The notes: generated by a model not told the origin, from the sequence alone. Counted from the stretch's first letter, positions 1-37,008 are shown. The stretch is 46,847 nucleotides of DNA from Jimgerdemannia flammicorona (GCA_003990765.1 RBNJ01000052.1:1-46847); one strand, 5' to 3'. A program made the numbers and translations.

Positions 1-139
1 CCCTAACCCTAACCCTAACCCTAACCCTAACCCTAACCCTAACCCTAACCCTAACCCTAACCCTAACCCTAACCCTAACCCTAACCCTAACCCTAAGCCT
101 AACCCTAACCTAACCCTAACCCTAACCCTAACCCTAACC
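1..139 (+). repeat. Terminal telomeric tract (CCCTAA)n, ~23 units, left chromosome end
   Basis: Direct CCCTAA repeats from base 1. One GCCTAA variant (97-102) and one CCTAA variant. Confidence 0.98.
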
Positions 140-217
140 TTTCTGCGATCTAACACGGCTATTGCTCGACTCTGTCGATTTCTTGCACAAATCTTTGCTT
201 AAACTACACAACCGTCA

Positions 218-240
218 CCCTAACCCTAACCCTAACCCTA
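218..240 (+). repeat. Internal short telomeric tract (~4 CCCTAA units) at the 5' junction of retrotransposon copy 1
   Basis: CCCTAA x3 + CCCTA immediately before GGCCGCTCACGTG, the 5' end shared with copies 2 and 4. Confidence 0.95.
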
Positions 241-316
241 GGCCGCTCACGTGATTTCCCCATTTGGTTAGACTCGGCTTTACGGCCCGACAAACACACC
301 TCCGCCTATTTCGGCA

Positions 317-1816
317 ATGTCGGCCTCCTCCTCCGTCGTCGGTGATGACGGCAACGCCACCCGCCTTTTCGCGCGCTTCGGCGCCTCGCTCCACTGTGCT
401 GAATGTCGCGGCGTCGGTCTTCTCTCCCTCGGCTTCGGCGAGGGTAGCCTTATGGCAATGTGCAGGTCGTGCGGGGATGTACGACCGATATCGGCATATT
501 TATCTTTCCTGCGCGATGCGGAAGATGACGAAGAGATTGCGATCTCTTCCGATTCGGACCACAACGCCCAGCGCCAAAATTACTCTCCCATGCCCCCGCC
601 CCTCAATCGGAACAAGCGTGGTCGCCTGAACATTAGTTTGGGAATGACCCCGACGGCCGGTCATGTGGGCCCCTCAGCCGACCCCGATCTGGTCACGGAG
701 ATGGCCACGATGAGGAAGCAGATCTCGGATCTGCTGGCTCAGGTGGCCGAACTGGCCAAGATCAATGCCCAACTAATGGCGCAGCTTGCCGAGAGGTCGG
801 CTGCCCCAACTTCGTTGCTGTACGGTGCCTCTTCGGGAGGTACCCCCGCCACCCCTTCCACATCCGCCCCCCCCAAGTCATCGGCCCCCCCTCCTACTGG
901 TCCTGCCACGAACACGCGGTCAAAGGCCCAGAAGCGAGCGGACAAGCGGGCCGCTAAAGCCGCCGCGTCGCAGTCTGGTGCGCCGCCAAAGGAGGCAACT
1001 CCCACGGTTGCGCCTCCGGCCGCTAAAGCCGCGCCCCCTAAAAAGGGCAAGGCTAAGGCTCCCGGGCCAGTGCCCCAGGTTACGCCTGTGGGACCCAGCG
1101 CCGCCGGTCCGTCTTCGTCCCCCGCTTCGACCCCCGCCCCCCCCAAATTATACGCTGCCGCCGCCAAGAAGGTCTCTATCAAGGATAAGACCCAGGCATA
1201 CCCCGAGATGGAAAGGGCTGCTGCCGCAGCCGCTCTTTCACGCATGACCCGCAAGCCGACCTCTCATTTGTCGCCGACTGAGAAGGGTGCTAGGCTGCAG
1301 CGTGTGTACGTCGATGGATTCGCCCATCTTAAGATCGGGCAGATCCGGAAGAACTTGTATGACGTCCATGTGATGTTGTCAAAAGTTCTCAACATGTCGT
1401 ACATCTCGGCGTCGACCATCGAATTCCTGCTCCGCCCTGATTATGTCACGGCGTTCCAAAAGAAGATGAAGGTGCTCGGGTTCTCGGTGCTTTCGGCCTG
1501 GGACCCCGCCCTCCCACGCAACAAGAACACCACGGAGGCCGTGAAAACGCGGGTACTCCAATCTTTCCATGCCCGGGTCCGGCAGTTGGCAGGCGAAGCC
1601 ACTGCGAAGAGGCCTGAAGTGCAGACCTTCTACAAGGCGTGGGCCGCGGAACCTTGCCTCGCCCTCCCCTCTGTCGCCTCCCCGTCGGCCGGCCCTGCTT
1701 CGAAGGCAGGTGGTACTGTGGCCGTAACGGGTAATATGGCGATGGATTTGGAAGCTGAAGCCTCCGCCTCAGGTGCTTCTCACGCTGGTGGTGCTAACGC
1801 ACCCAGCCCACAATGA
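317..1816 (+). CDS. Retrotransposon ORF1 protein (499 aa): N-terminal CxxC-x18-CxxC Zn ribbon, coiled coil, P/A/K-rich linker, RRM-like C-terminal domain
   Basis: Open ORF upstream of the EN-RT ORF. Motifs CAEC...CRSC, heptad segment LVTEMATMRKQISDLLAQVAELAKINAQLMAQLAE, YAAAAKK, RVYVDGF...IEFLL. The RRM assignment is inference. Confidence 0.88.
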   Translation: MSASSSVVGDDGNATRLFARFGASLHCAECRGVGLLSLGFGEGSLMAMCRSCGDVRPISAYLSFLRDAEDDEEIAISSDSDHNAQRQNYSPMPPPLNRNKRGRLNISLGMTPTAGHVGPSADPDLVTEMATMRKQISDLLAQVAELAKINAQLMAQLAERSAAPTSLLYGASSGGTPATPSTSAPPKSSAPPPTGPATNTRSKAQKRADKRAAKAAASQSGAPPKEATPTVAPPAAKAAPPKKGKAKAPGPVPQVTPVGPSAAGPSSSPASTPAPPKLYAAAAKKVSIKDKTQAYPEMERAAAAAALSRMTRKPTSHLSPTEKGARLQRVYVDGFAHLKIGQIRKNLYDVHVMLSKVLNMSYISASTIEFLLRPDYVTAFQKKMKVLGFSVLSAWDPALPRNKNTTEAVKTRVLQSFHARVRQLAGEATAKRPEVQTFYKAWAAEPCLALPSVASPSAGPASKAGGTVAVTGNMAMDLEAEASASGASHAGGANAPSPQ

Positions 1817-4779
1817 GAGTCGGGTTCCTCAATGCACATGGACTAACTCAGGACAAGTTCGATGTGCTCAGTCGGTTGATTGGTCCTGCTCTTGACGTTC
1901 TTTTCATTTGTGAAACGTGGCACATTCCGCTGCATCCCTCTCCACTCGTTCACATGTCCTCCCCCCCGGCATCGCACAGGATCGTGGGTCACCAGAACGG
2001 TGGTCTCGTGGTCCTTGTGTCAAACCGTTTCGCCCCCCTCATTTCTGGGTCTTCCGCCGACCCCTTCTATATCCGGCTCATGTTCCAGGGCTTGGCTTTG
2101 ATTGGGGTTTACACCCCCCCATCTCTTTCCATTGGTGGCTTCCGTGATCTGGTGTCTGGACCCTTTCCGGGTAAGGCCCTTTTGATCGGTGACATCAATA
2201 CCCGCTTCGGTGCCCGCCTTGGTGATGTCAACTCCGGTCCTCGTGATCGAATGGATGTCGTCGACACCTCTCTGATGACGTGGTCGCTGAACCACCTGAC
2301 TCCGGTGGCTGGATCCACACGCGTTGATCACGCGTTCGCCACCGCGTCCCTCCATGCGTCCCTCACCTGCTCCACCCCTCCTGTCGCCACCGACCACCCC
2401 TCCCTCCTCACCGTCTCTTTCCCCTTCTCCCCCTTGCCGGTTGCTACCCTGGCAGGCATCCATCGTTACTCTGCGAGATACCTGACCGACCCGGTCGTTC
2501 AAGCCCACCTTCGGGAATCAGCGGATATCGTTTGTGATACCGTTATCAGGTCCATTTACTCTATCAGAGACCACATCGCCGGCTTTCGCTCTGTGGATGA
2601 TCACCAGCAGTTTGTGGATTCCCTTGATGCCCTTTTGACCTCTGGTCTACAGTCAGTGTGTGAGGACACTCTTGGCTCGTATGACGCAAGAGAGATCAGG
2701 GCAGCGCCACTTCCTAGGCGGGACCTCCTTCGCAGTGCATCTTCGGTCTCTGATGCCATCCGTGGTTTCAAGCGAGCGTATCGCTCCACCCCCTCCGCTC
2801 CCCTTCAATCTCGTTCCCCCAACGTCCCGGTGTTCGATAATGTGGTTGCTCACTTTACCACTATCTTCAGCCGGCCGGACGCCTCCCTCCGTCTCGATGA
2901 CTCTGAGGACGTCTTCCCCCTTGGCATGGGAGCTCTTGGGCTGCAGTTTTGGTTTGACCAACCTGCGGTTTGGAGAGCTATCCGCAGCTACCCCCTCTCA
3001 AAGGCATGTGGTGCTGACTCCTTACATGTCCGGATCCTTCGGGTGATGGCAGGTGAGAAGGATGCCCCCTGTAGCCTTTCGAAGGCCCTTTCGTTCTTCT
3101 TCCAGATGTGCGTGGTTTGGGGGCTCACTCCCCGCCGCTGGAACTCTGCCATCATCACCCCGGTCCCCAAGAAGGAGGAATCGTGTACGATCGATGGATT
3201 TCACCCTATTGCTCTGACTGAAATGTTTCGCAGACTCTTCGAGCGGTGCTTGGAAGGATACGTCAAGAGCCGAAGTGGACTGACAGAAATGTCATGCTGC
3301 CAAGGTGGCTTCCGAACCCGCTTCTCATCCCTATCTCATGTCTTGCTCTCGCACGAGACGTGGGCCAAGGGGTGGGGCCGCCGTGTCTTCTTGGACCTCC
3401 GGCAGGCGTATGATCGAGTCCCCCTCAAGTGCATTCTTTCCCGCCTTGAGGAGCGAGGTGCCAATGCGGCCCTCCTTAGCATTATTCGTAGCCTGTTCAA
3501 TCACTGTTCTTATCAGGTGGTTGTTAATGGCCTCGTCACCCCTTCGGTCCCCACTGAGCATTGCCTCTTCCAGGGCTCCCTCCTCTCCCCTTGGCTGTTT
3601 GATGTCTTTATCAACCCCCTTGCCGCCTCCTTCGATGAACAATTTAAGGAGTACGACTTCCCCCTCGGGCTTTTCTTTGCTGATGACATCGCCCTTACCC
3701 CCCGCACTGCCGCGGAAGGGCAAAGGATGGTCGATTTTTGTGAGGACTGGCTCCGGGCGAACGGTATGGAGCTCAATCCCAAGAAGTATGGTTATGTTGG
3801 CCCGGCTGACTGTACTGTGCTTATTGGGGGCGAACCCTGCCCGCGACCCACCTCCTACATGTACCTGGGCGTGCCGTACACCAACAAGGGGTTTGACTTT
3901 GTCGATCTTGCATTGCAGAATGCGGCAAAGGCAGAACATACTCTCGGGTTCTGCCGCGCCCGTGGTCCCCTCTGGTCGCCAATGGTCAAGCTGGCCATCA
4001 TATGTACTTTCATCAGGCCTCAGCTGGAATATGGCCTCCCCCTTCTACGAGCTTCCTGTCCGGCTACTACCACGGGGCTTCAGGTGTTGAAGTGCCCCGA
4101 GCAGGTCTTTGATGATGCTGTCGCCTGGGCGGTTGGATTTTCCGGCCGTCCCTTGCTCGGCAGTTCGATTCTCGGCCTCCCTTCCTTTCTCCGTCGAACG
4201 TCTGACCTCTGCTGCATGTTCCAAGCCCACCTGGATTGGTGTAGCAAGTCGGGCAACAACCCCATCGGTCCTCTTAGTGAGCGCTTTGTCACGCGTCCCC
4301 CGGGTTCTATTATTGACAAGTTCCAGCATTGGACCTCTTGGCTTGACTTCCTCGACTGGTACTGGGACCTCCATCCCCAGGTCCGCAAGACTCGCTTGCT
4401 CCGCTCCTTTCTCCAGTCCTTCCTTCGGGATCAGTTGCTGCAGGAATGGGCCTCCTCCTCCCAGGCTCTCGTTTGGTATATCACCCCCAAAGGCCGCTTG
4501 CGGTCGTGGGGCACCGACCGCGTCCTTTCCTTCCCCCCCCGGCTTGTGCGTTCTGCCCTCACCTGGCACTATGGCTACTTTGGCCAACCCCGCCCCTGCC
4601 CCTGTGGAGATAAGTTTCATCGTGGCCATCTCCTCAGGTGCGGTCTTCTCGACGGTTCTTATTCTGCTTTCCGAGGTTCTTCAGATCGAGATGAACAACT
4701 CGACTGGTTTACCAGTGACGAATGGCAGGAGGAACTTTGCGCCTACCCTCTTCACGCTCTTCACGAGACAGCCTACTAA
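1813..4779 (+). CDS. Retrotransposon ORF2: APE endonuclease + reverse transcriptase + C-terminal Cys/His motif (988 aa; premature stop, consensus stop at 4860)
   Basis: APE motifs FLNAHGL, CETW, GVY, GDIN, VDH, TDH. RT motifs KACGADSL, PVPKK, GFHPIAL, QGGFR, FLDLRQAYDRV, FQGSLLSP, FFADD, YLG. Tail CPCGDKFHRGHLLRC. Copy 2 reads CAC where this copy has TAA (4777). Confidence 0.96.
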   Translation: MRVGFLNAHGLTQDKFDVLSRLIGPALDVLFICETWHIPLHPSPLVHMSSPPASHRIVGHQNGGLVVLVSNRFAPLISGSSADPFYIRLMFQGLALIGVYTPPSLSIGGFRDLVSGPFPGKALLIGDINTRFGARLGDVNSGPRDRMDVVDTSLMTWSLNHLTPVAGSTRVDHAFATASLHASLTCSTPPVATDHPSLLTVSFPFSPLPVATLAGIHRYSARYLTDPVVQAHLRESADIVCDTVIRSIYSIRDHIAGFRSVDDHQQFVDSLDALLTSGLQSVCEDTLGSYDAREIRAAPLPRRDLLRSASSVSDAIRGFKRAYRSTPSAPLQSRSPNVPVFDNVVAHFTTIFSRPDASLRLDDSEDVFPLGMGALGLQFWFDQPAVWRAIRSYPLSKACGADSLHVRILRVMAGEKDAPCSLSKALSFFFQMCVVWGLTPRRWNSAIITPVPKKEESCTIDGFHPIALTEMFRRLFERCLEGYVKSRSGLTEMSCCQGGFRTRFSSLSHVLLSHETWAKGWGRRVFLDLRQAYDRVPLKCILSRLEERGANAALLSIIRSLFNHCSYQVVVNGLVTPSVPTEHCLFQGSLLSPWLFDVFINPLAASFDEQFKEYDFPLGLFFADDIALTPRTAAEGQRMVDFCEDWLRANGMELNPKKYGYVGPADCTVLIGGEPCPRPTSYMYLGVPYTNKGFDFVDLALQNAAKAEHTLGFCRARGPLWSPMVKLAIICTFIRPQLEYGLPLLRASCPATTTGLQVLKCPEQVFDDAVAWAVGFSGRPLLGSSILGLPSFLRRTSDLCCMFQAHLDWCSKSGNNPIGPLSERFVTRPPGSIIDKFQHWTSWLDFLDWYWDLHPQVRKTRLLRSFLQSFLRDQLLQEWASSSQALVWYITPKGRLRSWGTDRVLSFPPRLVRSALTWHYGYFGQPRPCPCGDKFHRGHLLRCGLLDGSYSAFRGSSDRDEQLDWFTSDEWQEELCAYPLHALHETAY

Positions 4780-5367
4780 GCCATAGATGCCATGTGTAAT
4801 TCTGGTGGCCACCTCGCGGTCGGGTTTTACCTGACCGAGATTACGAAGATGCTTGGGTGATCGAGCGATTGCACATTTTCTTTATTTCTTTCTTTCCCCT
4901 CATTCGCCTTGGTTGGTTCCCCCGTTGTTAAGAGCGCATTGAGTTATTCATCTCATATCAGTCGTTTGGAGTTCAGTTGTCGATACGGTTCATGTAGTTG
5001 GCGCTGGGCGAATGTGTATTATATTTTAGCTTCTCTCTTTTTTGCTTTCTGCATTTATTATCCTTACGGCCGTGACTAAATGGTTTTATCCAGCCCGTCC
5101 ATAGGGTGGTCACCTCTCTGGCCTTTGTTTTGTACTTCTTAGCTAGTTGTTTACTTCGCTGGCCTTGTTTTGCTTTTCTCATCTTAGGAGTCTTTGCCAT
5201 TTGTTGCTCTGATGTATCTTATCTTTTCTACAATGAATAAATCCTTACTTGAAGCCTAACCCTAGCCACTCACGTGATTTCCCCATTTGGTTAGACTCGG
5301 CTTTACGGCCCGGAGCTATTCCAAATTAAGAAAGCAGTCACTTTGATTAGCTAAGCCTCTCATCAGG

Positions 5368-5375
5368 TATAAATA
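5368..5375 (+). promoter_or_regulatory. Candidate TATA box (TATAAATA) in the element 5'UTR
   Basis: TATAAATA ~110 nt upstream of the ORF1 ATG (5478). Conserved in copy 4 (11446-11453) and deleted in copy 1. Function not shown. Confidence 0.45.
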
Positions 5376-5477
5376 CCCCCCTTCCCCATTATTTTTTCAT
5401 TGCACAAACAAAGGTCATGTGACCCGTGTTACACAATTTCAACCAAACAAACAAACACACCTCCGCCTATTTCGGCA

Positions 5478-6965
5478 ATGTCGGCCACCTCCTCCGTCGT
5501 CGGCGATGACGGCAGCGCCACCCGTCTCTTCGCGCGCTTCAACGCCTCACTCTGCTACGCTGAATGTCGCGGCGTCGGTCTCCTTTCCCTTGACTTTGGC
5601 GAGGGTAGCCTTACGGCGATGTGCAGGTCGTGCGGGGATGCACGACCGATATCGGCGTATTTATCTTCCCTTCGCGACGCGGAGGATGATGAAGAGATTG
5701 CGATCTCTTCCGATTCGGACCATGATGCCCAGCGCCCCACCAATTACTCTCCCACACCCCACCCCTCAATCGGAACAAGCGTGGTCGCCCAAACATTAGT
5801 TTGGGAATGACCCCAACGGCCGGTCATGCGGGCCTCTCAGCCCACCCCGATTTGGTCACGGAGATGGCCGCAATGAGGAAGCAGATCTCGGATCTGCTGA
5901 CTCAGGTGGCCGAACTGGCCAAAATCAATGCCCAATTGATGGCGCAGCTCGCCGAGAAGTCAGCCGCCCCAACCTCGTTGCTGTATGGTGCTCCTTCGGG
6001 AAGCACCCCCGCCGCCCCTTCCACATCCGCCCCCCCAAGTCCTCGGCCCCCCCTCCTACTGGTCCTGCCGCTAACACGTGGTCGAAGGCCCAGAAAAGAG
6101 CGGATAAGCGGGCCACTAAAGCCGCCGCGTCACAGTCTGGTGCACCGCCAAAGGAGGTAACTCCTGCGGTGGAGCCTCCGGCCACTAAAGCCGCGCCCCC
6201 TAAAAAGGGCAAGGCCAAGGCTCCCGGGCCAGTGCCCCAGGCTACGCCTGTGGGACCCAGCACCACCGGTCCATCTCCGTCCCCCGCTTCGGCCCCCGCC
6301 CCCCCCAAATCGTACGCCGCCGCCGCCAAGAAGGTCTCTATCAAGGATAGGACCCAGGCCTACCCCGAGACAGAAAGGGCAGCTGCTGCCGCCGCCCTTT
6401 CGCGCATGACTCGCAAGCCGACCTCTCATTTGTCGCCGACTGAGAAGGGTGCTAGGCTGCAGCGCGTTTATGTTGACGGGTTCGCCCATCTGAAGATCGG
6501 GCAGATCCGGAAGAACCTGAACGACGTCCATGTAATGTTGTCAAAAGTTCTCAACATGTCATACGTCTCGGCGTCGACAATCGAATTCCTTCTCCGCCCT
6601 AATTATGTCACGGCGTTCCAAAAGAAGATGAAGGTGCTCGGGTTCTCGGTGCTGTCGGCCTGGGACCCTGCACTCCCACGCAACAAGAACGCCACGGAGG
6701 GGTTCTCCAATCATTCCATGCTCGGGTCTGGCAGTTGGCAGGCAAAGCCACTGCGAAGAGGCCTGAGGTGCAGACCTTCTACAGGGCGTGGGCCACGGAA
6801 CTCGGCCTCACCCTCCCCTCCCCCGCCTCCCTGATGGCCGGCCCTGCTTCGAAGGCAGGAGGTACTGTGGCCGTGACGGGTGATATGGCGATGGATTTGG
6901 AAGCTGAAGCTTCCACCTCAAGTGCTTCCCATGCTGTTGGTGCTAACGCGCCCGGCCCCCAATGA
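5478..6965 (+). pseudogene. Copy 2 ORF1, frameshifted
   Basis: ORF1 peptide split over ORFs 5400-5810, 5801-6160, 6169-6834 and 6735-6965. Indels near 5760, 6035 and 6700. Confidence 0.9.
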
Positions 6966-9900
6966 GAGTCGGGTTCCTCAATGCACACGGACTACCCCAG
7001 GACAAGTTCGATGTGCTCAGTCGGTTGATTGGTCCTGCCCTCGATGTTCTTTTCGTATGTGAAACGTGGCACATCCCGCTGCGTCCCTCTCCACTCATTC
7101 ACATGTCCTCCCCTCCGGCATCGCACAGGATCGTGGGTCACCAGAATGGTGGTCTCGTGGTCCTTGTGTCAAACCGTTTCGCCCCCCTCATCTCTGGGTC
7201 CTCCGCCGATCTCTTCCATATCCAGCTCATATTCCAGGGCCTGGCTTTGGTTGGGGTTTACGCCCCCCCCTCTCTTCCCATTGGTGGTTTCCGCGATCTA
7301 GTGTCTGGACTCTTCCCGGGTAAGGCCCTTTTGATCGGTGACATCAATACCCATTTCGGTGCCTGCCTTGGTGACGTCAACTCTGGTCCTCGTGATCGGA
7401 TGGATGTCGTCGACACCGCATTGATGACGTGGTCATTGAACCATCTGACCCCAGTGGCTGGATCCACACACGTTGATCACGCGTTCGCCACCCCGTCCCT
7501 CCACGCATCCCTCACCTGCTCCACCCCTCCTGTCGCTACCGATCATCCCTCCCTCCTCACTGTCTCCTTCCCCTTCTCTCCCTCGCCGGTTGCTGCCTTG
7601 GCTGGTATCCATCGTTACTCTGCGAGATACCTGACCGACCCGGTCATTCAAGCTCACCTTCGGGAATCAGCAGATATCGTTTACAATACCGTTATCAGGT
7701 CTATTTACTCTGTTAGGGACCACATCGCCGGCTTTCACTCTGTGGATGATCGCCAGCAGTTCGTGGATTCCCTTGATGCTCTTTTGACCTCTGGTCTACA
7801 GTCTGTCTGTGAGGACATTCTTGGCTCGTATGACGCAAGAGAAATCAGAGCAGCGCCGCTCCCTAGGCATGACCTCCTCTGCAGTGCATCTTCGGTCTCT
7901 GATGCCATCCATGGCTTTAAGCGAGCTTATCGCTCTACCCCTTCCGCACCCCTTCAGTCTCGCTCCCCCAATGTCCCTGTGTTTGATGATGTGATTGCAC
8001 ACTTTACCACTATCTTCAGCCAGCTGGATGCCTCCCTCTGCCTCGATGACTCTGAAGATGTCTTCCCCCTTGGCGTGGGCGCTCTTGGGCTGCAGTCTTG
8101 GTTTGACCAACCTGCGGTTTGGAGGGCTGTCCGCAGCTACCCCCTCTCTAAGATATGTGGTGCCGACTCCTTGCACGTCCAGATCCTTCGAGTGATGGCG
8201 GGTGAGAAGGACGCCCCCTGTAGCCTTTCGAAAGCCCTCTCATTCTTCTTCCAGATGTGTGTGGTCTGGGGGCTCACTCCCCGCCGCTGGAACTCAGCCA
8301 TCATCACCCTGGTCCCTAAGAAGGAGGAATCGCGTACGATCGATGGATTTCGCCCTATTGCTCTGACTGAAATATTTCGTAGACTCTTCGAGCGGTGTTT
8401 GGAAGGATACGTCAAGAGCCGAAGTGGCCTGACAGAAATGTTGCGCTGCCAAGGCGGCTTCCGAACCCGCTTCTCGTCCCTTTCCCATGTCCTGTTATCG
8501 CACAAGACATGGGCCAAGAGATGGAGCCACCGTGTCTTTTTGGACCTCCGGCAGGCGTACGATCGAGTCCCCCTCAAGTGCATTCTTTCTCGCCTTGAGG
8601 CGCGAGGTGCCGATGTGGCCCTCCTTAGCATTATCCGAAGCTTGTTCAACCACTGTTCTTATCGAGTGGTTGTTAATGGCCTCATCACCTCTTCGGTCCC
8701 CACTGAGCATGGCCTCTTTCAGGGCTCCCTCCTCTCCCCCTGGCTCTTTGATGTCTTTATTGATCCTCTCGCCGCCTCTTTTGATGAACAGTTCAAGGAG
8801 TATGACTTTCCCCTCGGGCTCTTCTTTGCTGATGACATCGCCCTTACCCCCCGCACTGCCGCGGAAGGGCAAAGGATGGTCAATTTTTGCGAAGACTGGC
8901 TCCGGGTGAACGGCATGGAGCTCAATCCCAAGAAGTGTGGTTATGTTGGCCCTGCTGACTGTACTGTGCTGATTGGGGGTGTGCCCTGCCCGTGAGCCAC
9001 CTCCTACGTGTACCTGGGAGTGCCATACACCAACAAAGGGTTTGACTTTATCGACCTGGCGTTGCAGAATGCGGCGAAGGCGGAACGAACTCTTGGGTTC
9101 TGCCGTGCCCGTGGTCCCCTCTGGTCGCCAATAGTCAAGCTGGCCATCATACGTACTTTCATCAGGCCTCAGCTGGAGTATGGCCTCCCCCTTCTACGAG
9201 CTTCCTGTCCGGCTACTACCACGGGGCTTCAGGTGTTGAAGCGTCCTGAGCAGGTCTTTGATGATGCTGTCACTTGGGCAGTTGGATTTTCCGGCCGTCC
9301 CTTGCTCGGCAGTTCGATTCTCGGCCTCCCTTCCTTCCTTCGTCATATGTCTGACCTCTGCTGCATGTTCCAAGCCCACCTGGATTGGTGTAGCAAGTCG
9401 GGCAACAACCCTGTCAGCCCCCTTAGCGAGTGTTTTGTCACACGTCCCCCGGGTTCTATTATTGACAAGTTCCGGTGTTGGACCTCCTGGCTTGACTTCC
9501 TCGACTGGTACTGGGACCTCCGTCCCCAGGTCTGCAAGACTCACTCACTCCGCTCCTTCCTCCAGTCCTTCCTCCTGGATCAGCTGCTGCAGGAATGGGC
9601 CTCCTCCTCCCAGGCTCTCATTCGGTACATTACCCCCAAAGGCCGTTTATGGTCGCGGGGCACCAATCGCGTCCTCTCCTTTCCCCCCTGGCTTGTGCAT
9701 TCTGCCCTCGCTTGGTGCTCTGGCTATTTTGGCCAACCCCGCCCCTGCCCCTGTAGAGATAAGTTTCATCGTGGCCATCTTCTCAGGTGCGGTCTTCTCG
9801 ACGGTTCGTATTCTGCTTTCCGAGGTTCTTCAGATCGAGATGAACAGCTCGACTGGTTTACCAGTGACGAATGGCAGGAGGAACTTCATGCCTATCCTCT

Positions 9901-10009
9901 TCACACTCTTCACGAGACAGCCTACCACGCTATCGACGCCATGTGTAATTCTGGTGGCCACCTTGCGGTCGGGTTCTGCCTGACCGAGATTATGAAGATG
10001 CTTGGGTGA
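6962..10009 (+). pseudogene. Copy 2 ORF2 (EN-RT), 1015 codons with one in-frame CGA>TGA stop at 8993-8995
   Basis: ORFs 6962-8995 and 9008-10009 share a frame. Total 3048 nt, equal to copy 1 1813-4860. Confidence 0.93.
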
Positions 10010-10413
10010 TCGAGCGATCGCACATTTTCTTTACTTCTTTCTTTCCCCTCATTCACCCTGGTTGGTTCCCCCGTTGTTGAGAACACATTGAATTGTTCAT
10101 TTCATATCAGTCGTTTGGTGTCTGGTTGACGATATGGTTCTTGTAGTAAGCGCCGGGCAAATGTGTATTATATCTTAGCTTTTCTTTTTCTGCTTTCTGC
10201 ATTTATTATCTCTACGGCCGTGACTAAATGGTTTATCCAGCCCGTCCATAGGGTGGTCACCTCTCTGGCTCTTGTTTTGTACTTCTTAGCTAGTTGTTTA
10301 CTTCGCTGGCCTTGTTTTGCTTTTCTCGTCTTAGGAGTCTTTGTCTTTTGTTGCTCCGATGTAACTTGTCTTCTCTACAATGAATAAATTCTTACTTGAA
10401 GCCTAACCCTAAC

Positions 10414-11324
10414 CCTTGACTGGTACTGGGACCTCCATCCCCAGGTCCACAAGACTTGCTTGCTCCACTCCTTCCTTCAGTCTTTCCTTTGGGATCAGCT
10501 GCTGCAGGAATGAGCCTCCTCCTCCCAGGTTCTCATTCAGTATATCACCCCCAAAGGCTGCTTGCGGTCGCAGGGCGCCGACTGTGTCCTCTTCTTCCCC
10601 CCCTGGCTTGTGCATTCTGCACTCGCCTAGCATTACGGCTATTTTGGCCAACCCTGCTCCTGCCCTTGTGGAGATAAGTTTCATCATGGCTATCTCCTCA
10701 GGTGCGCTCTTCTTGATGGTTCATATTCTGCTTTCTGAGGTACTTCCGATCGAGATAAACAACTTAATTGGTTTACCAGTGACGAATAGTAGGAGGAACT
10801 TCATGCCTACCCTCTTCACACTCTTTACGAGATAGCCTATCATACTACAGATACCATGTATAATTCTGGTGGCCACCTCATGGTTGGGTTTTGCCTGGCT
10901 GAGACCACAAAGATGCTTGGGTGATTGAGCGATCGCACATTATCTTTACTCCTTTCTTTCCTCTTGTTTGCCTTGGTTGGTTTCCAATTATTAAGAGTAT
11001 ATTGAGTTATTTATCTCATATCAGTCGTTTGGTGTTTGGTTGTTGATACAATCTCTGTAGTTAGTATCAAGCGAACATATATTATATCCTAGCCTTCCTC
11101 TTCTTTGCTCTTTTGTATTTATTATCTTTATGGCCATGACAAAATGGTTTTATCTAGCCTGTCCATAGGGTGGTCACCTCTCTGGCCTTTGGTTTATTTT
11201 TCTTAGCTAGTTGTTTTACTTTGCTGATCTTGCTTTACTTCTTCTATCCTAGGAGTCTTTGCCTTTTATTGCTCTGATATATCTTATCTTCTCTACAATA
11301 AATAAATTCTTACTTAAAGCCTTA
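10414..11324 (+). mobile_element. Telomeric retrotransposon copy 3, 5'-truncated (end of ORF2 + 3'UTR)
   Basis: Starts at the position equivalent to ~4350 of copy 1 (CCT-TGACTGGTACTGGG). AATAAA 11301-11306. Ends AAAGCCTTA, followed by CCCTTA CCCTTA CCCTAA. Confidence 0.93.
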
Positions 11325-11883
11325 CCCTTACCCTTACCCTAACCCACTCAAGCGATTTCCCCATTTGGCTAGACTCGGCTTTATGGCCTGAAGCTATTCC
11401 AAATTCAGAAAGCAGTCACTTTGATTAGCTAAGCCTCTTATTAGGTATAAATACCCCTTTCTTCATTATATTTTCATTATACAAACAACAGTCATGTGAC
11501 CTATATTTCACAATTTCATAAACACAAACAAACACACCTCTGCCTAATTTAGCAATGTCAGTCACCTCCTCTGTCATAGGTGATGATGGCAATGCCAACC
11601 ATCTCTTTGTGCACTTCAGGGCCTCTCTCTACTGTGCCAAATATCATGACGTCAGTCTCCTCTCTCTTGGCTTCAACAAGGGTAGCCTTATGGTAATGTG
11701 CAGGTCATATAGGGATATTTGACTGATATCAGCGTATTTATCTTCCCTGTATGGTGCGGAAGAAGATGAAGAGATTATAATCTCTTCTGATTCAGACTCA
11801 GATGCCCAGTGCCCCCCCTACTCTCCCACACCCTTGCACCCTCAATCGGAATAAGTATGGTTGCCCAAACACTAGTTTAGGTA

Positions 11884-11995
11884 GTCAAGTCCTTCGGGAC
11901 CGCTGACACTTGAAAAAATTGGAATGATACAGAGAAGATTAGCATGGCCCCTGCACAAGAATGACAGTATCTTCCTGAGTGGATAGCCCTATACG
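11884..11995 (+). pseudogene. U6: U6 snRNA retrocopy inserted in copy 4 ORF1
   Basis: 5' hairpin GTCC-TTCG-GGAC. Core AAATTGGAATGATACAGAGAAGATTAGCATGGCCCCTGCACAAGAATGACA (ACAGAGA box, AGC triad, ISL). Flanked by the 16-bp direct repeat AACACTAGTTTAGGTA (11868-11883, 11996-12011). Confidence 0.93.
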
Positions 11996-12753
11996 AACAC
12001 TAGTTTAGGTATGACCCCGACTGCCAGTCATGCGGGCCCCTCAGCCGTCTCTGATCTAGTTATGAAGATGGCTACAATGAGGAAGCAGATTTTGGATCTG
12101 TTGACTCAAGTGGTCAAACTGGCCAAGATCAATGCCCAGCTGATGGTGCAGCTTGCTGAATGATCTGCACCCACTGCCCCCTTGTCATCTGGTGCTCCTT
12201 CGGGAAGTACCCCCACCACTCCTTCCACATCCACTCCCCCCCAAGTCCTTGGCCCCCCCTCCTACTGGACCTACTATAAACACACAGTTGAAGGCCTAGA
12301 AGAGAGTAAACAAGCAGGCTGCTAAAGCTGCCATATTGTAGTCTGGCACACTGCTAAAGGAGGTAGCTCCCATGGCTGTGCCTCTGGTCACTAAAGCCAA
12401 GCCCCCTAAAAAGAGCAAGGCCAAAGCCCCCAGACCAGTGCCCCAGGTTATGCCTGTAGGACTCAGTGCCACCATTCCGTCTTTATCTCCTGCTTCAACC
12501 CCTGTCTCCCCCAAATCATCCACTACTGCCACCAAGAAGGTCTCTATCAAAGATAGGACCCAGGCCTACCTCGAGATGGAAAGGGCAGCTGCTGCCACCA
12601 CTCTTTTGTGCATGACCTACAAGCCGACCTCTCATTTATTGCTGACTGAGAAGGGCACTCGGCAGCAGTATGTTTACATTAATGGGTTTGTACATCTTAA
12701 GATCAGGCAGATCTGGAGGAACTTGTATGACATCCATGGGATGTTCTCAAAAG

Positions 12754-12758
<5 letters not shown>

Positions 12759-12809
<51 letters not shown>

Positions 12810-14265
12810 CATTTATTAACTATCTATAACATTCTACATATCCTCATACAACATCAGTAGTCCCATTCTACCCCAATCTCAACCCACTCCCAGCCTTGCA
12901 TCTTTAGGGTGTGAGTTGTAACCTCAATGCCTAAGTAACTAGATCCTCCTACCCAGCCTACCCCACCCAGTGGGTATGGGTTGTGAGCCCCAACCACCTC
13001 AAGTACTTGACATCTAGTACACCTGACCTACCCCTATTAGTACCTTCTGTCTTGCCTATCTAGCCTGTCTTGCCTGCCCATGTTACCCATATTGCCATCT
13101 TGCTGTCTTGCCCATCTTACCCATCTTGCCCGTCTTGCCTGCCCATGTTGCCCGTGTTGCCCATATTACCCTGTTGCCCGCTCGTGTTGCCTGTATTGCC
13201 CGTCTTGCCCATCTTGCCCATGTTGCCCATATTACCCATCTTGCCCATCTTGCCCGTCTTGTCCATCTTGCCCACCCATATTGCCCCTGTTGCCCATGTT
13301 GCCCAAGTTACCCGTGTTGCCCGTATTGCCTGTTTTGCCTGTTTTGCCTGTTTTGCCCGTATTGCCTGTTTTGCCTGTTTTGCCTGTTTTGCCCATCTTG
13401 CCCATGTCGCCTGTCTTGCCATCTGCCCATCTTGCCCATGTTGACCATCTTGCTGTCTTGCCCTTCTTGCCCATCTTGCCCCCCTGTGTTGCCCATATTG
13501 CCCATGTTGCCCGTGTTTTCCATATTGCCCATGTTGCCCATATTGCCCATATTGCCTGTGTTGCCCATGTTGCCCATATTGCCCATATTGCCCATATTGC
13601 CTGTATTGCCTGTATTGCCCATGTTGCCCGTATTGCCCGTGTTACCCAACCATGTTGCCCATATTGCCCATATTGCCCGCCTGTGTTGCCAGTGTTGCCC
13701 GTATTGCCCGTTTTGCCCATTTTGCCCATTTTGCCCATTTTGCCCATTTTGTCCATTTTGCCCATTTTGCCCATTTTGCCCATTTTGCCCATTTTGCATG
13801 GCTTGTCCATGTCTCCTGTCTTGCTCTCTGCCCATCTTGCCCAGCCATCTTGCCGTCTTGCCCATCTTGCCCGTCTTACCCATCTTGCCCATCTTGCCCA
13901 TCTTGCCCATCTTGCCTGTCTTGCCCATCTTGTCCATGTCATCCATCTCCCATCTTGTCATCTTTCCATCTTGCCCATCTTGCCCGTCTTGCCCGTCTTA
14001 TCCGTCTTGCCTACCTGTATTGCCTGTGTTGCCCATGTTGTCCTTGTTACCTGTGTTGCCCATTTTGCCTGTTTTGCCCATGTCACCTATCTTGCCGTCT
14101 GCCCATCTTGCCCATATCGCCCATCTTGCTGTCTTGCCGTCTTGTCTGTCTTGCCCGTCTTGCCTATGTTGCCCATGTTGCCCATGTTGCCCGGGTTTGT
14201 TTCTCCCAGTTATATGTAAAACCATTGCTTGAAGTTTATGTCATGCGAATTGTACTGGAGAGAGG
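12759..14265 (-). mobile_element. Non-autonomous poly(A) retroposon with L1/Tx1-family 5' end and internal minisatellite
   Basis: T48 at 12759-12806, with TTTATT (AATAAA on minus) at 12812-12817. 17-bp TSD TGTT(C/G)TCAAAAGTTCTC (12742-12758, 14266-14282). Minus-strand 5' end CCTCTCTCCAGTACAATTCGCAT resembles the 5' ends of the LINEs in this window. Confidence 0.85.
13048..14193. repeat. Degenerate 9-bp minisatellite (TTGCCCATN / TTGCCCGTN / TTGCCTGTN), ~120 units
   Basis: Direct reading of the tandem units. Produces repetitive ORFs in multiple frames on both strands. Confidence 0.95.
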
Positions 14266-17200
14266 TGTTGTCAAAAGTTCTCAATATGTTATACGTCTCA
14301 TCGTTGACCATTGAATTTCTGCTCTACCCTGATTATGTCACAGCATTCCAAAAGAAGATGAAGGTGCTCAGGTTCTCGGTGCTATTGACCTGGAACCCTG
14401 CAACAAGAATGCCATGGAGGCCATGAAGACATGGATACTTCAGTCATTCCATGCTTGGGTCCGGCAGTTAGCTGGTGAAGCCACTGCGAAGAGGCCTGAG
14501 GTGCAGACCTTCTACAGAGCTTGGGCCATGGAACTCAGCCTTACTCTCCCATTCTCTGTCCCCCCATCAGCTGGCTCAGCTTCGAAGGCAAGTGGTACCA
14601 TGGCTATGATGGGTGATATGGCAATGGATTTGGAAGCCAAAGCTTCCTTCTCAGGTACTTTTCATGCTGTTGGCACTAATACGCCCAGCCCACAATGAGA
14701 GTTAGATTCCTCAATACACACAGACTACTCTAGGACAAGTTTGATGTGCTCAGTTGGTTGATTGATCCTGCCCTTGACATTCTTTTCATATGTGAAACAT
14801 TGCACATCCTGCTGCGTCCCACTCCGCTCAATCACATGTCCTCCTCCCCGGTATCGCACAGGATCGTTGGTCATCAGAATGGTGGCCTCGTGATTCTCAT
14901 GTCAAACCGTTTTGCCCCCCTTATTTCTGAGTCCTCTGCTGACCCCTTCCATATCTGGCTCATGTTCCAGGGCCTGACTTTGATTGGAGTTTATGCCCCA
15001 CCCTCTATTCTTATTGGTGGTTTCTGAGATGTGGTTTCTGGACCCTTTTCAGGTAAGGCCCTTTTGATTGGTGACATCAATACCCACTTCAGTGCCTGCC
15101 TTGGTGATGTCAACTCTGGTCCCCGTGACCAGATGGATGTCGTCAACACCTCCCTGATAACGTGGTCATTGAACCATCTGACCCTGGTGGCTGGATCCAC
15201 ATACATTGATCATGCATTCACCACCATGTCCCTCTATGCATCCCTCACTTGCTCTACTCCTCTTATCACTACTGACCACCACTCCCTCCTAATTGTCTCC
15301 TTTCCCTTCTCCTCCTCACCGGTTGCTGCCTTGGCTGGTATCCATCATTACTCTGCAAAATACCTATCCAATCTGATCATTCAAGCTCACCTCCGAGAAT
15401 CAGTGGATATCATTTGCGATACTGTTGTCAGGTCCATCTACTCTATCAGAGACCCTATCCCTGGCTTTTGCTCTGTGGAAGACTGCCAGCAGTTTGTAGA
15501 TTCTCTAGATGCCCTTTTGACCTCTGGTCTATAGTTAGTCTGTGAGGACATTCTTGGCTCGTATGACATAAGAGAGATCAGGGTGGCACCACTCTCTCAG
15601 TGGGACCTTCTTCACAGTGCATCTCCAGTCTCTGATACCATTCGTGGTTTCAAGTAAGCATACTGCTCTACTCCTCTTGCACTCCTCCAATCTCACTCCA
15701 CCAATGTCCCAGTGTTTGATGATGTGGTCACCCATTTCACCACTATCTTCAGTCAGTCTGATGCCTCTCTCTGTCTCGATGACTCTGAGGATGTCTTCTC
15801 CTTCAGCGTGGGTGCTCTTGGACTGCAGTCTTGGTTTGACCAGCCTGTGGTTTGGAGGGCTATCCGTAGCTACTGCCTCTCGAAGGTGTGTGGAACTGAC
15901 TCCTTATATGTCCAGATCCTTCGAGTGATGGCAGGTGAGAAGGATGCCCCCTGTAGCCTGTCAAAGGCCCTATTGTTCTTCTTCCAGATCTGCGTGGTTT
16001 GGGGGCTCACTCTCTACTGCTGGAACTCTGCCATTATCACTCCGGTCTCTAAGAAGGAGGAATCACATACAATTAATGGATTTCGCCCTATTGCTCTGAC
16101 TGAAATGTTTCATAGACTCTTCGAGCAGTGTTTGGAAGGATATCTCAAGAGCCGAAGTGGCCTGACAGAAATATCATGCTGCCAAGGTGGCTTCTGAACC
16201 CACTTCTCATCCCTCTCTCATATCTTTCTTTCACACGAGATGTTGGCTAAGGGATGGGGGCACCGTGTCTTTCTTGACCTCTGGCAGGCATATGACTGGG
16301 TCTCCCTCAAGCTCATTCTTTCACGACTTGAGGTGCGAGGTACCGATGTGGCCCTCCTTAGCATTATCCGAAGCCTGTTCAATCACTGTTCCTACCAGGT
16401 GGTTTTTAATGGCCTTGTCACTTCTTCGATCCCCACTGAGCATGGCCTCTTCCAGGGCTCCCTCCTCTCTCCTTGGCTGTTTGATGTCTTTATTAACCCT
16501 CTTGCTGCCTCCTTTGATGAACAATTTAAGGAGTATAACTTCCCCCTCAGGCTCTTCTTTGCTAATGATATTGCCCTTACCCCCCGCACTGCTGCAGAAG
16601 GGCAGAGGATGGTTGACTTTTGTGAAGACTGGCTTTCGGTGAATGGTATGGAGCTCAACCCCAAGAAGTGTAGTTATGTTGGCCCTGCTGACTGTACCAT
16701 GCTGATTGGGGGCAAACTCTGCCTGCGACCCCCCTCCTACATATACCTGGGCATACCATATACCAACAAAGGGTTTGACTTTGTCAGCCTCGCTTTGTGG
16801 AATGTGGCAAAGGCAGAATGAACTCTTGGGTTCTGCCATGCCCATGGTCCTCTCTGGTCGCCAATGGTTAAGTTGGCAATTGTATGAACATTCATCAGAC
16901 CTCAGCTGGAGTATGGCCTCCCCTCTTTCGTCTGTCATATGTCTGACCTCTGCTGCATGATCCAAGCCCACCTGGATTGGTGGTGCAAGTCTAGCAATAA
17001 CCCCATCGGCCCCCTTAGCGAGTGCTTTATCATGCATCCCCTAGATTCTATCATTGACAAGTTCTGGCATTGGACCTCCTGGCTTGACTTCCTCAACTGA
17101 TACTGGGACCTTTGTCTCCAGGTCTGCAAGACTCGCTTGCTCTGCTCCTTCCTCCAGTCCTTCCTTTGGTATTAGCTGCTGCAGGAATGGGCCTCCTTCT

Positions 17201-17997
17201 CTAGGCTCTCATTTGGTATATCACCCCCAAAGGCCACTTGCAGTCACAGGGTGCCAACTACGTCCTCTCCTTCTCTCCCTGGCTGGTGCGTTCTGCCCTT
17301 GTCTGGCGTTATGGCTATTTTGGCCAACCCCCCCCTGCTCCTGTGGAGATAAGTTTCATCATGGCCATCTCCCCAGGTGTGGTCTTCTCTATGGTTTATA
17401 TTCTGCTTTCCAAGATACTTTCAATTGAGATGAACAGCTTGATTGGTTTACCAATAACGAATGGCAGAAGAACTTTATGCCTACCCTCTTCACGCTCTTC
17501 ACGAGACAGCCTATCATGCTATCGATGCTATGTGTAATTCTGGTGGTCACCTGGCGGTTGGGTTCTGCCTGATCAAGATTATGAAGATGCTTGGGTGATC
17601 GAGCGATTGCACATTTTCTTTACTTCTTTCTTCCCTCTTGTTTGCCTTGGTTGGTTCTCTCATTGTTGAGAACATATTGAGTTATTCATCTCATGTCAGT
17701 CGTTTGGTGTTTGGTTGTTGATACAGTTCATATAGCTGGCACTGGGCAAATGTGTATTATATCTTAGTTTTTCTTTTCTTTACTTTCTGCATTTATTATC
17801 TTTATGACTATGACAAAATGGTTTTATCCAGCCCATCCATAGAGTGGTCACCTCTCTGGCCTTTGTTTTGTTTTTCTTAACTAGTTGTTTACTTCGTTGG
17901 TCTTGTTTTGCTTTTCTCATCTTAGGAGTCTTTGTCTTTTATTGCTCTGATGTACCTTGTCTTCTCTATAATGAATAAATCCTTACTTGAAGCCTAA

Positions 17998-18007
17998 CTC
18001 TAACCCT
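17998..18007 (+). repeat. Innermost relic telomeric repeats (CTCTAA CCCT), proximal boundary of the array
   Basis: Follows GAAGCCTAA of copy 4. The CCCT overlaps the broken end of the minus-strand LINE. Confidence 0.75.
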
Positions 18008-20840
18008 CCAAATCGCCTCTGTCCTAAAAGCCCCCAATGATCCAATCGAGGATACCATTCCACTTCCAGTAACTTTCAAACATCTAAGCCCCAGTAGCTG
18101 GCTATCAGGATCTGATCAATTCTTGTCTCCAAGCCCTCTGCCCAATATATATATACCCTCCTATCCCTCCAGCACTCCCTACCCACATCTACCAGAGCAC
18201 TCAGCCTCTCCACTTCCTCCTATACTGCCAGTTCTCCACTCTGACTCTCAGCTCCCTATCCTCTATCTGTTCTGTTCAACAGTACATCTTGGACTATATT
18301 GTAGTCTTCACCCAGCATATCCACCCCAGCCTCTGTGAGGATCCCACTCTCCTGATGGCCCTTCACCCAATCCACATCCTCACTCCATACCATGGGGTAG
18401 TAATAAGATCCCACTGTAACTGACTCCCATCCTGAATATATCCACTCACTCCAGACCAATCTATCCTGCTCTGCATATCCCTTGTCTCTCCTCTGCCTTT
18501 TCATACCAGAATCCCAACCTTGTCTTTCCAAACTACCTCACCTTTCTATTTCTGTGTCCATTCCAGTCTATCTAAATCATCTTCACACCTGACATCCTAT
18601 AAGAGGAAGAGATTGGTCTCTAATTCCTTCAGCCAAGTAAAAATGTTCCTGTATCAATAAGCACCCTGTAACCCATTCACATTCAAAGAAAAAATATTAG
18701 TTGTACCATTCATAATAAAGTATGGTATATTAATTTAGTCCATTCCTACTGCTCTATTTCATTTCTTCCTGCATCATATCCAGATTATGTTCTGAAGTCA
18801 CTGCCTACTCCTCAGCCCACTAAGTCTCCAATTCTGCCAATAGCTCATTCATCTCCCCATCTGCCTTCTCCTCAAACTCCTCTCAGTACTCCAGGTAGGT
18901 CTTGTGCCAGAGCTATAATTAATATCACTTGGCTCAATAGTATTTGGCCCTCTCACCAGCAACCACTACTAGCTCAGCCTCCTGCTCCTTATCCACTTCT
19001 ATCCTTCCTCTTCCAGATACACTACAAGAATAGCTGCCTTCAATGCCAACTTCACACCCTCCCTCTACAGGACTCACCCAATACTCATTACTCATTACTC
19101 TCAAGTCCACCTCTCCCAGCTCTTCAGCCACCAGATTATTCATCATTCTACATATCCAAAGTAGGTTTCCTACCTCCTTCCCTCCTGGGGTTACCAGTCT
19201 CCTACTGTCCAACATTGTGATATCAGTCCTGGTACTTACAGCCTCATTCCAAACCTCTGGGACATCCAGCAGTTCCTTCTCTCCAACTGCCTCTACCTAT
19301 CCCCCATTCGCCAATTCTGGAACTCCAAATTGTACTCACTGGGCCCCCTTCATAGGTATATCCTCCCCCATCCTACTCTGGGAAGCTGGACCTCTCCTGA
19401 TAAGCAGAGTAGAAGTAGGTAATCCCTCCTATTCCTCTTCCCAGACCTCAAACATACCATCAATATATGGGTCACTACTAGCAGCTTTTCTGTCCACTCC
19501 TGATCCTTTTCCCACACTTCTACTATCTTTGTCAGCCCAGACACTCACTTTGGAACCCCCTATTTCTACCATTCCACTTGTCTCCTTCTATGGTCAACTT
19601 TCCATCTTGGCCAGTAGCTTCTTCTGATGTTTATATCTCTGAGCTTTTTCCCATTATCTCTTGTCCACTCTAATCTGCTTCCCATCCACTATCTCCAAGT
19701 GTATTGACTCCTCAAAAGCCTTCCAAGCCTTTATCTACCACTCTATTGCTCTGCTCAGTTCTTCTAGTACCTCCAGCAAGTCCTCTTCCTCCTCCTCACT
19801 CCTCTTTACCCTTATCACCTTGCATAAGATCACCCCCCAGACCATCTCCGAAGGTCAGTCTCTTGCCTTCTCAGTAGCTTCTTCTCTATCAGCTGAATCC
19901 TTACATCTACATCTCCCATCCTGAGTGAGGTCCTCTCCCAGACTCTGAACCCAATATCTACTACCTCTCTATACTCCACTATAACCTCCTTGACTCTCCT
20001 TCTCATCTTCACTGTCATTACCATGGGCACTTCTTTCACCTGTAGTTGGCCCACCCTGGAGTCCAATTTCAGACAGTATGCCATCAGGACAGATACTTCC
20101 CCAACTATTAATCCAACCATCAGTGCTTCCCCCAGAGGCTCAACCTCCTCAAAACACACCTCCACTCCTTCTTATCTCTTTAGGAACTTTATAGATGCCA
20201 CTCTAGTCACCTGTTTAGCAATAAGCCCCAGTACTATTTTTTCCATCACTGCCAGACCCTGAAAGTACAATATCACTATAAATGCTAAGATCGATTTCTT
20301 GAGTAACAGAACCACCACCAGGCCCATTATACCATCTGCCAAATCTTCTTGCCTTCCAAGCCTCAGTCACCAGCCACACTATCAGCAGTCACATCTGGAT
20401 TTTTATCCAGATTGGCAGTTCCATCACCATCAGCTGTCACATTCTCCCCAGCCACTACTCCCCCAGCTCTACTGCCCTACCACCAAGGGCTACTTCCCTG
20501 TGAACAGCTGTCTTCTCCATCTTCTTGTCTTTTCTCAGCCAACCCTCCAGCCCAGTCATCTACTGCCTTCTCTTCACCATCTCTATAAAGCTCACCCTCC
20601 CAGACCCCTGTCCTCTACTGCTGCCTCCCCCCCCTCCTCATCCTCCTGCCAACAACCCCCTCATACCTCCCCCCAGGTCAGGACCTCTCCCCACCTGCTG
20701 CCAGTCAAATGTGCTAGAGCCATCTGACTTAGTATATACCCTAGATTGCTTGCTGTTTACTATTACCTTAGTATCTTTCTCCAATAAATACTTGAAAGTG
20801 TGTTATAAAGTATATATAATGTGAATAGTAGTTGAGAAAG
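18004..20840 (-). mobile_element. L1/Tx1-clade LINE A, decayed, with 5' end + ORF1 + most of the endonuclease; 3' part lost
   Basis: Homologous to 41170-44030 and 31183-33985. Minus-strand 5' motif CTTTCTCAACTACTATTCACAT at 20840. ORF2 start ATGAATGGTACAACTAATATTTTTTCTTTGAATGTGAATGGG (MNGTTNIFSLNVNG) at 18713. Confidence 0.88.
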
Positions 20841-20999
20841 GTAGCTGGTGTCTATTTTTATTTTTCATATTTATTATATCTCATCTTGACTCTATTTTCT
20901 TTGATCTTAGCTCAGGCTTTGCTTCTCTAACCAGATCTTCTGGTTCTCCCCTGGCTTCTGTTGTACTCTCTCTTCCTACTACTATAGTGACTAGTTCAG

Positions 21000-36993: not shown

Positions 36994-37008
36994 AGTAGTT
37001 TAACTATC

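Follow-up and report, generated by a model that had tools for sequence, protein, structure and literature searches.

Telomere-specific retrotransposons are the main natural models for how a mobile element becomes confined to a harmless or useful site, and for how retroelements relate to telomerase. The described cases are few and lineage-restricted, comprising TRAS and SART in insects, the HeT-A/TART/TAHRE (HTT) elements of Drosophila, CRE-type elements in some fungi, and Penelope-like elements (PLEs) that lack an endonuclease. TRAS elements are oriented with their sense strand on the C-rich telomere strand. The Drosophila elements, which belong to the Jockey clade, form head-to-tail terminal arrays with the 5' end tip-ward and the younger copies distal. 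The fungal MoTeR, FoTeR and Cnl1 elements have a single open reading frame (ORF) with a C-terminal restriction-like endonuclease (REL). Here we analyse a 46,847-nt stretch of the Jimgerdemannia flammicorona assembly (GCA_003990765.1, RBNJ01000052.1:1-46847; hereafter the window), which begins with a head-to-tail array of a long interspersed nuclear element (LINE) with two ORFs, one encoding an N-terminal endonuclease of the apurinic/apyrimidinic (APE) type and a reverse transcriptase (RT). We consider, with a probability of roughly 0.8, that this is a telomere-repeat-specific APE-type LINE and that successive target-primed reverse transcription (TPRT) rounds in terminal TTAGGG/CCCTAA built the array of ~18 kb, the youngest copy being outermost.

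TRAS1 and SART1 of Bombyx mori, both of the R1 clade, resemble the window element in being two-ORF LINEs with APE and RT domains that are telomere-repeat-specific and inserted in a fixed orientation, that of TRAS being the same as in the window. However, the target here is TTAGGG rather than their TTAGG, and the relatives of the window element come from metagenomes, not from insects. The HTT arrays lie on chromosome ends without telomerase repeats, to which their poly(A) is joined, whereas in the window CCCTAA both caps the tip and separates the copies. MoTeR, FoTeR and Cnl1 share with the window element insertion into telomere repeats, head-to-tail arrays, 5'-truncated copies and the same polarity (PMC12857005), and the FoTeR junctions described in that source carry three to seven TAACCC units at the 3' end and about one at the 5' end. 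In the RT and REL-domain trees presented there, MoTeR1, the FoTeRs and Cnl1 fall into one clade with SLACS, CRE1/2 and CZAR (PMC12857005). The FoTeR junctions are strikingly similar to those of the window; as the FoTeRs belong to the REL clade, this architectural likeness appears to be convergent. The telomeric elements of Malassezia are described as Cnl1-like (PMC10055393).

Athena and Coprina carry species-specific short telomere repeats at a 3' end that faces away from the tip, and their RNA tail has been proposed, in the account given by PMC4522978, to pair with the G-overhang. They encode a Penelope-like RT without an endonuclease, whereas the window element has a LINE RT, an intact APE domain and an ORF1. 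A 3.4-kb subtelomeric family of Mycosphaerella graminicola, with the same polarity and 3' repeats, was read by the authors of that source as Penelope-like (PMC4522978). Hebe of bdelloid rotifers was considered as a relative and rejected, being described as a Jockey-clade element with poly(A) and CCHC knuckles (PMC2861651). Where Kojima and Jurka (2015; PMC4640811) treat target-specific LINEs, TRAS1 and MoTeR are the only telomeric cases cited. Full-text literature, as distinct from the Repbase and Dfam collections, yielded no account, outside insects, of a lineage of APE-type LINEs that carry CCCTAA tails, and the lineage is apparently undescribed.

Positions 1-137 of the window are (CCCTAA)n with two variant units (Tandem Repeats Finder, TRF: period 6, 23.3 copies, 97% matches), and canonical repeats therefore still cap the tip outside the array. 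A search for TTAGGGTTAGGG allowing one mismatch returned 26 matches, all on the minus strand, against an expectation of 0.37; that number was reached in 0 of 100 shuffles. The matches lie at 1-137, 218-241, 10401-10412 and 11331-11342, while at 5254-5264 and 17992-18007 direct reading confirmed further tracts, which are shorter or mutated. Since every match is on the minus strand, the plus strand of the window is the C-rich strand and runs from the tip inward. Homology to the outermost copy (copy 1, 241-5253) was confined by BLAST to 241-17991, on the plus strand throughout. No further copy was found by tblastn of both ORFs over 18-46.8 kb, the sole match being a distant RT (31% over 150 aa, 45114-45536). 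The array thus consists of three full-length copies, with a two-ORF unit of 5.0-5.1 kb, and one 5'-truncated copy, all with the C-rich strand as their sense strand and the 5' end tip-ward (Table 1). All four copies have telomere repeat on both sides in this single orientation. A repeat search of the window detected copy-to-copy repeats only, and the element has no terminal repeats of its own.

The original prediction for this locus had named four ~5.1-kb copies of a two-ORF element, each bounded by telomere repeats, with none elsewhere in the window and with the polarity of HeT-A/TART, TRAS and Athena/Coprina. The searches and the direct reading of the tracts bear out the four copies of one element, their sense orientation on the C-strand with the 5' end tip-ward, the bounding repeats and the lack of further copies in the window. 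The prediction needs amending in that one of the four is a 5'-truncated fragment and that the two ORFs are open in copy 1 only.

The four 3' ends read ...AATGAATAAATCCTTACTTGAAG and run directly into CCTAACCCTA..., giving the pattern AATAAA-N12-G/CCTAACCC... (junction at the slash), with AATAAA placed 12-13 nt ahead of the junction. TRAS and SART elements have poly(A) between the 3' untranslated region (3'UTR) and the target repeat, whereas here the 3' end passes straight into the repeat and direct reading found neither an A-run nor poly(A) at any of the four junctions. The junction tracts of copies 1 to 4 are 11, 15, 26 and 16 bp long. The 5' ends likewise differ, being GGCCGCTCACGTG (GGCCGCTC) in copy 1, GCCACTCACGTG (GCCACTC) in copy 2 and ACTCAAGCG (ACTCAAGC) in copy 4, while copy 3 is truncated inside ORF2 at about residue 848, with a CCCT microhomology at the truncation point. 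The different tract lengths, the different 5' ends and the clean 5' truncation point to separate TPRT events rather than to recombinational copying of a single insertion. In the 5'UTR, copy 2 (5313-5450) and copy 4 (11392-11527) have a 138-bp segment that includes a TATAAATA motif and is missing from copy 1, reflecting either a deletion in the 5'UTR of copy 1 or a different subfamily. At the tip, the 80-bp orphan segment ends ...ACAACCGTCA immediately before CCCTAA and may be the stub of another telomere-inserting retroelement.

Table 1. Telomere tracts and element copies in the outer 18 kb of the window.
Feature	Position	Strand	Basis
Terminal telomere tract (CCCTAA)n, chromosome tip	1..137	+	motif search, TRF
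80-bp orphan segment between two telomere tracts	138..217	.	no significant match in window or 79 related loci
Telomere tract, CCCTAA x ~4, adjoining 5' end of copy 1	218..240	+	motif search
Copy 1, intact, 5,013 bp	241..5253	+	
Junction tract GCCTAACCCTA, 3' end of copy 1 / 5' end of copy 2	5254..5264	+	
Copy 2, full length, decayed; 90% identity to copy 1	5265..10400	+	BLAST
Junction tract GCCTAACCCTAACCC	10401..10415	+	
Copy 3, 5'-truncated, last ~0.9 kb; 84% identity to copy 1	~10416..11318	+	BLAST
Junction tract, mutated (GCCTTACCCTTACCCTTACCCTAACC)	11319..11344	+	
Copy 4, full length, most decayed; 77-86% identity to copy 1	11345..17991	+	BLAST
Innermost junction tract GCCTAACTCTAACCCT; unrelated decayed repeat beyond	17992..18007	+	

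Sequence decay is graded along the array. From copy 1 to copy 4 the observed/expected ratio (o/e) of CpG is 0.86, 0.79, 0.36 and 0.27, the GC content is 0.57, 0.56, 0.43 and 0.48, and the number of private substitutions in the common 3' 900 bp is 23, 34, 77 and 51. Damage to the ORFs is distributed similarly: copy 1 is open, copy 2 has a frameshift in ORF1 and a single ORF2 stop, copy 3 contains five stops and copy 4 has many. Younger copies thus lie outside and older ones inside, which fits successive additions at the tip. Comparison of copy 1 with copy 4 indicates that 183 of 445 CpG cytosines (41%) were converted, as against 9-16% in the other contexts (CpA 79/496, CpC 78/642, CpT 41/472), with no preference for TCG. 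In older repeats farther inside, CpG o/e is ~0 and (CpA+TpG)/(ApC+GpT) is still above 1. Judged from these base changes, the decay carries the signature of methylated-CpG deamination. Classic CpA-directed repeat-induced point mutation was considered as its cause and is ruled out by the CpG-specific conversion without TCG preference.

Copy 1 comprises a 5'UTR (241-316), ORF1 (317-1816, 499 aa), ORF2 (1813-4779, 988 aa) and a 3'UTR (4780-5253) with AATAAA at 5236-5241. The ORF1 stop and ORF2 start overlap in the sequence ATGA, which recalls the overlapping stop and start of SART1. ORF2 contains an APE domain (residues ~1-205), an RT domain (~380-750) and a Cys/His motif (~926-943), the last being the only feature in the region past the RT. 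Pfam identified RVT_1 in ORF2 (2e-18, residues 452-687); Exo_endo_phos was weak for the window ORF2 alone (0.017) and was matched by 20 of 40 homologues. An exhaustive phmmer search returned 24,269 proteins at E<=0.001, 556 of them at E<=1e-30, the best full-length matches having 33-38% identity and two short fragments 71% and 76%. Conservation was assessed in an alignment of 40 full-length homologues with 25-35% identity. In the APE domain N7, E34, Y100, D127, N129, D194 and H195 are invariant, and D172 and H173 are conserved in at least 90%. The same holds for D624 and D625 (invariant) and A623 (at least 90%) of the FADD motif of the RT, and for C929 (invariant) and C943 (at least 90%) of the C-terminal Cys/His motif.

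Against solved structures, the ORF2 profile matched human L1 ORF2p best (1.8e-56, positions 3-745), followed by R2 proteins (~1e-43); as the full-length solved-structure matches are of L1 and R2 type only, the L1 ORF2p match assigns no clade. A profile search of a protein collection for a clade name was uninformative, yielding 12 proteins and one name. With a profile of the endonuclease (EN) only (23 sequences), L1 EN was the best match (5.5e-11), followed by bacterial exonuclease III-type enzymes, and the EN domains of TRAS1 and R1Bm were not among the matches even at E<=10. An AlphaFold model of the EN (mean predicted local distance difference test, pLDDT, 87.5) had L1 EN as its best fold match (1vyb, E 1.4e-10, TM 0.67), and TRAS1 EN ranked only 18th, behind L1 EN and APE1, with R1 EN at rank 40. 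Profile and model together argue that the endonuclease is of genuine APE type, without special closeness to the insect telomeric elements. Besides this structural match for both EN and RT, the window element resembles human L1 in its C-terminal Cys/His motif and in the layout of ORF1; L1, however, inserts at degenerate TTTT/A sites with poly(A).

In ORF1, a stretch predicted to be coiled-coil-like precedes a compact alpha/beta domain, and a Pfam search of ORF1 gave nothing significant. Of the 79 related loci described below, 19 have a conserved ORF1 C-terminal domain (~310-445). A model of this domain (pLDDT 85) shows a beta-alpha-beta-beta-alpha unit plus helices and has no match in the PDB at E<=0.001, the weak rows including RRM/ACT-like folds. 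These results sustain the view, already taken in the original prediction, of an APE-type two-ORF LINE, given that the catalytic residues are invariant or at least 90% conserved in the 40 homologues and that EN profile and EN model both match L1 EN. They also uphold its separation from MoTeR, which is placed in the REL clade by the trees in PMC12857005, whereas the element here has two ORFs and an N-terminal APE domain.

The window element is not isolated. A back-translated pattern scan of metagenome contigs matched 387 stretches, of which 172 were confirmed as relatives and 79 loci were kept and scanned for telomere-repeat 12-mers with at most one mismatch. An RT tree was built from 68 loci and the window; the 11 loci left out (L019, L029, L031, L035, L041, L049, L061, L070, L071, L074 and L079) had an RT match of fewer than 300 residues or one with stops. 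The tree falls into two halves. We tested 34 loci in the half that holds the window, 29 of which have at least 250 nt downstream, for a 3' pattern in which, downstream of ORF2, AATAAA is followed after 0-22 nt by two or more C-type telomere units. The pattern is present on the sense strand in 18 of the 34, compared with none for its G-type version, none on the antisense strand and one located upstream of where ORF2 ends; of 34 loci from the other half of the tree, none has the C-type pattern. Representative 3' ends are AATAAATTCCGTAAAGCCTAACCCTAACCC... (L018), AATAAACCCCCTAACCCTAACCCTAA (L005), AATAAAGACTCTTAACTCCTAACCTAACCTAA with a five-base CCTAA unit (L030) and AATAAAAAACCGTTCAACCTAAACCCTAA with the tail unit CCTAAACCCTAA (L011). 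Head-to-tail copies with short tracts also occur in four relatives (L003, L004, L035 and L060). Since the sense-strand pattern in 18 of 34 loci stands against none on the antisense strand and none in the neighbouring clade, telomere targeting is, as far as such 3' ends can tell, a trait of the whole lineage and not of the window element alone.

Two further sets of loci bear on targeting. The LINE bodies of L005 and L014 have as their sole common match 259 bp at 66% identity, and both adjoin the same 29-bp telomere-containing satellite and 3.4-kb flank (L005:4469-7846 and L014:8630-11934, 96.8% identity), which is probably a shared subtelomere border. That two families only ~65% alike sit at the same satellite and flank indicates repeated targeting of one kind of site. 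A mirror clade (L037, L065, L066 and L077, also L032 and L048) has AATAAA, 10-12 nt and then sense-strand (TTAGGG)n, and L077 has G-type tracts on both sides, the terminal one at least 70 bp long. In orientation, this clade is to the C-tail lineage what SART is to TRAS in the silkworm. As a separate observation, one or two units of ~118 bp ending in ACCTAACCCTAA lie upstream of the elements in L002 (1-173) and L006 (1-27); they may represent short non-autonomous elements that ride on the same machinery.

A mechanism can be proposed from this anatomy. The element would be transcribed from its 5'UTR, and the RNA would be cut a few nucleotides into the adjoining repeat, so that it ended ...GAAG-CCUAACCC(UAA). 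With AATAAA 12-13 nt before the junction in the window copies and 0-22 nt before it in relatives, normal cleavage would fall inside the first telomere units and leave a telomere-complementary RNA tail. This tail would pair with a 3'-OH of the G-rich strand. We lean slightly towards a nick that the APE endonuclease of the element itself introduces, rather than a natural G-overhang, as the priming end, because the APE catalytic residues are conserved lineage-wide and because the TTAGGG-sense clade must nick the C strand. Reverse transcription from the G-strand 3'-OH would give the anatomy seen, with no poly(A), 10-26 bp of repeat per copy and 5' truncation where synthesis stopped prematurely. 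Priming in this way would also set the orientation, with the sense strand on the C-strand and the 5' end tip-ward as the copies show, and the new outer end would again be capped by telomere repeats. Pairing between tail and primer would account for the absence of copied poly(A), for the presence of only two to four repeats in each unit and for the differences in tail motif from one relative to another.

Several observations weigh against a telomere-specific LINE that inserts by TPRT. The junction tracts, at 26 bp or less, fall below the length that random nicking in a telomere of ~140 bp would be expected to leave; priming on a tract that was very short or terminal accounts for them as well as later shrinkage does, and the short tracts between copies speak for priming on eroded ends or near the inner border of the tract. 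Among the relatives, the basal split of the RT tree is weak (SH-like approximate likelihood ratio test, SH-aLRT, 23), and a well-supported clade of 33 rows leaves out the window and L001. What ties the window to that clade is the common ORF1 C-terminal domain together with ORF2 matches along the full length, which in the best loci span residues 1-950 at E 1e-104 to 1e-137. The 3' pattern is missing from 16 of the 34 loci, five of which have less than 250 nt downstream, the rest having no detected tract. Upstream of the element, a telomere tract of at least two units was present in 0 of 12 relatives checked, among them L014 with 3.2 kb upstream, and a single CCCTAA in two.

The short inter-copy tracts bear most directly on an alternative in which no endonuclease acts at the chromosome end: the CCCUAA tail would anneal to the G-overhang where a telomere had become critically short, and direct extension of the end by the RT would follow, leaving the APE domain to serve other steps or rare internal insertions. 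For HeT-A/TART, too, direct end extension of this sort is the proposed route. Such a model has been summarised for PLEs with 3' telomeric repeats (PMC4522978). Tracts of 11-26 bp between copies, as against 137 bp at the terminus, are as would be found on eroded ends, the orientation is the sole one compatible with priming from a G-strand 3' end, and age rises strictly inward, from a young pair of copies to an old pair. Interstitial tracts can, however, shrink after insertion. In addition, APE residues that are invariant or nearly so across 40 homologues at 25-35% identity suggest selection for nuclease activity, and the neighbouring TTAGGG-sense clade cannot use the overhang, which points to nick-dependent targeting in close kin. 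We therefore regard end healing of this kind as unlikely.

Were the telomere-like repeat a tail and not a target, the element would be a dispersed LINE with a microsatellite tail, and the array a product of self-nesting or of repeat pile-up near ends. The lack of upstream tracts in the 12 relatives would agree with this, as would the 3' tracts of many relatives, which run for only two or three units before non-telomeric sequence. In the window, however, all copies are telomere-flanked on both sides in a single chromosome-end orientation, and the repeat-rich 29 kb that follow contain no further copy. Also against it are the tail motif, which differs between relatives much as telomere motifs differ between hosts (CCTAA in L030, CCTAAACCCTAA in L011), the mirror clade with its TTAGGG tails and the long terminal tract of L077, and the presence of two different families at the same flank in L005 and L014. 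We consider this explanation highly improbable. Slimmer still is the chance that one or two insertions were amplified by unequal exchange or break-induced replication, to which subtelomeres are prone in general, or that the array is an assembly artefact, because no two boundaries agree in junction tract or 5' end, a clean 5' truncation has telomere tracts on both sides, and copies 10-23% apart with a 138-bp difference in the 5'UTR do not resemble a collapsed or duplicated assembly.

Beyond the TPRT-built array itself, we tentatively put forward a wider proposal, of which we are less than evenly convinced. The element would represent an old and widespread APE-LINE lineage specialised on TTAGGG-type telomeres, with a neighbour clade of mirror orientation. 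Chromosome ends would be recognised by a short telomere-complementary RNA tail, set by a conserved AATAAA ~10-20 nt before the repeat, and in the window the lineage would form the terminal ~18 kb beside telomerase-type repeats. Independent evolution of telomere specificity is plausible, as the EN in both profile and model comparisons appears nearer to L1 EN than to TRAS1 or R1 EN.

The window also contains sequence of other kinds. An unrelated minus-strand insertion interrupts copy 4 at 12759-14270 and consists of a run of 48 T followed by ~125 copies of a 9-bp minisatellite (TGCCCATCT), flanked by a 12-bp target-site duplication, TCAAAAGTTCTC, at 12747-12758 and 14271-14282. The 48-T run and the duplication indicate that the insertion is a later poly(A) retroposon that entered the old copy 4 on the other strand. 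Inward of the array are three decayed copies of a second, unrelated LINE, at 18008-21000 on the minus strand and at 31278-37000 and 41000-46847 on the plus strand. This LINE has an RVT_1 match (3.6e-16) at 44910-45374, a CpG o/e of ~0 and a very strong strand skew (GC skew ~0.45), its sense strand being G-rich. Pfam searches of 51 stop-to-stop ORFs from 18-46.8 kb detected the decayed RT, one sub-threshold match at chance level and no host gene. The only stretch of normal CpG (o/e 0.7-1.2) amid the CpG-depleted repeats is 22000-26000, which holds non-repetitive minus-strand ORFs of 131 and 144 aa without a Pfam match; these may be a host gene.

If the wider proposal is correct, the lineage would represent a third case in which telomere specificity arose independently, besides the R1-clade elements of insects and the CRE-type elements of fungi, and convergence on telomeres would be commoner than thought. 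It would also provide a natural LINE, and an enzyme, acting on TTAGGG, the repeat common to vertebrates, many fungi and many other eukaryotes. Its many and diverse members, with their simple conserved 3' signal, would allow broad comparison of whether target choice is encoded in the endonuclease or in the pairing of the RNA tail. In genome annotation, arrays of this kind explain why the assembly of some chromosome ends consists of 5-kb repeats with short telomere tracts in between.

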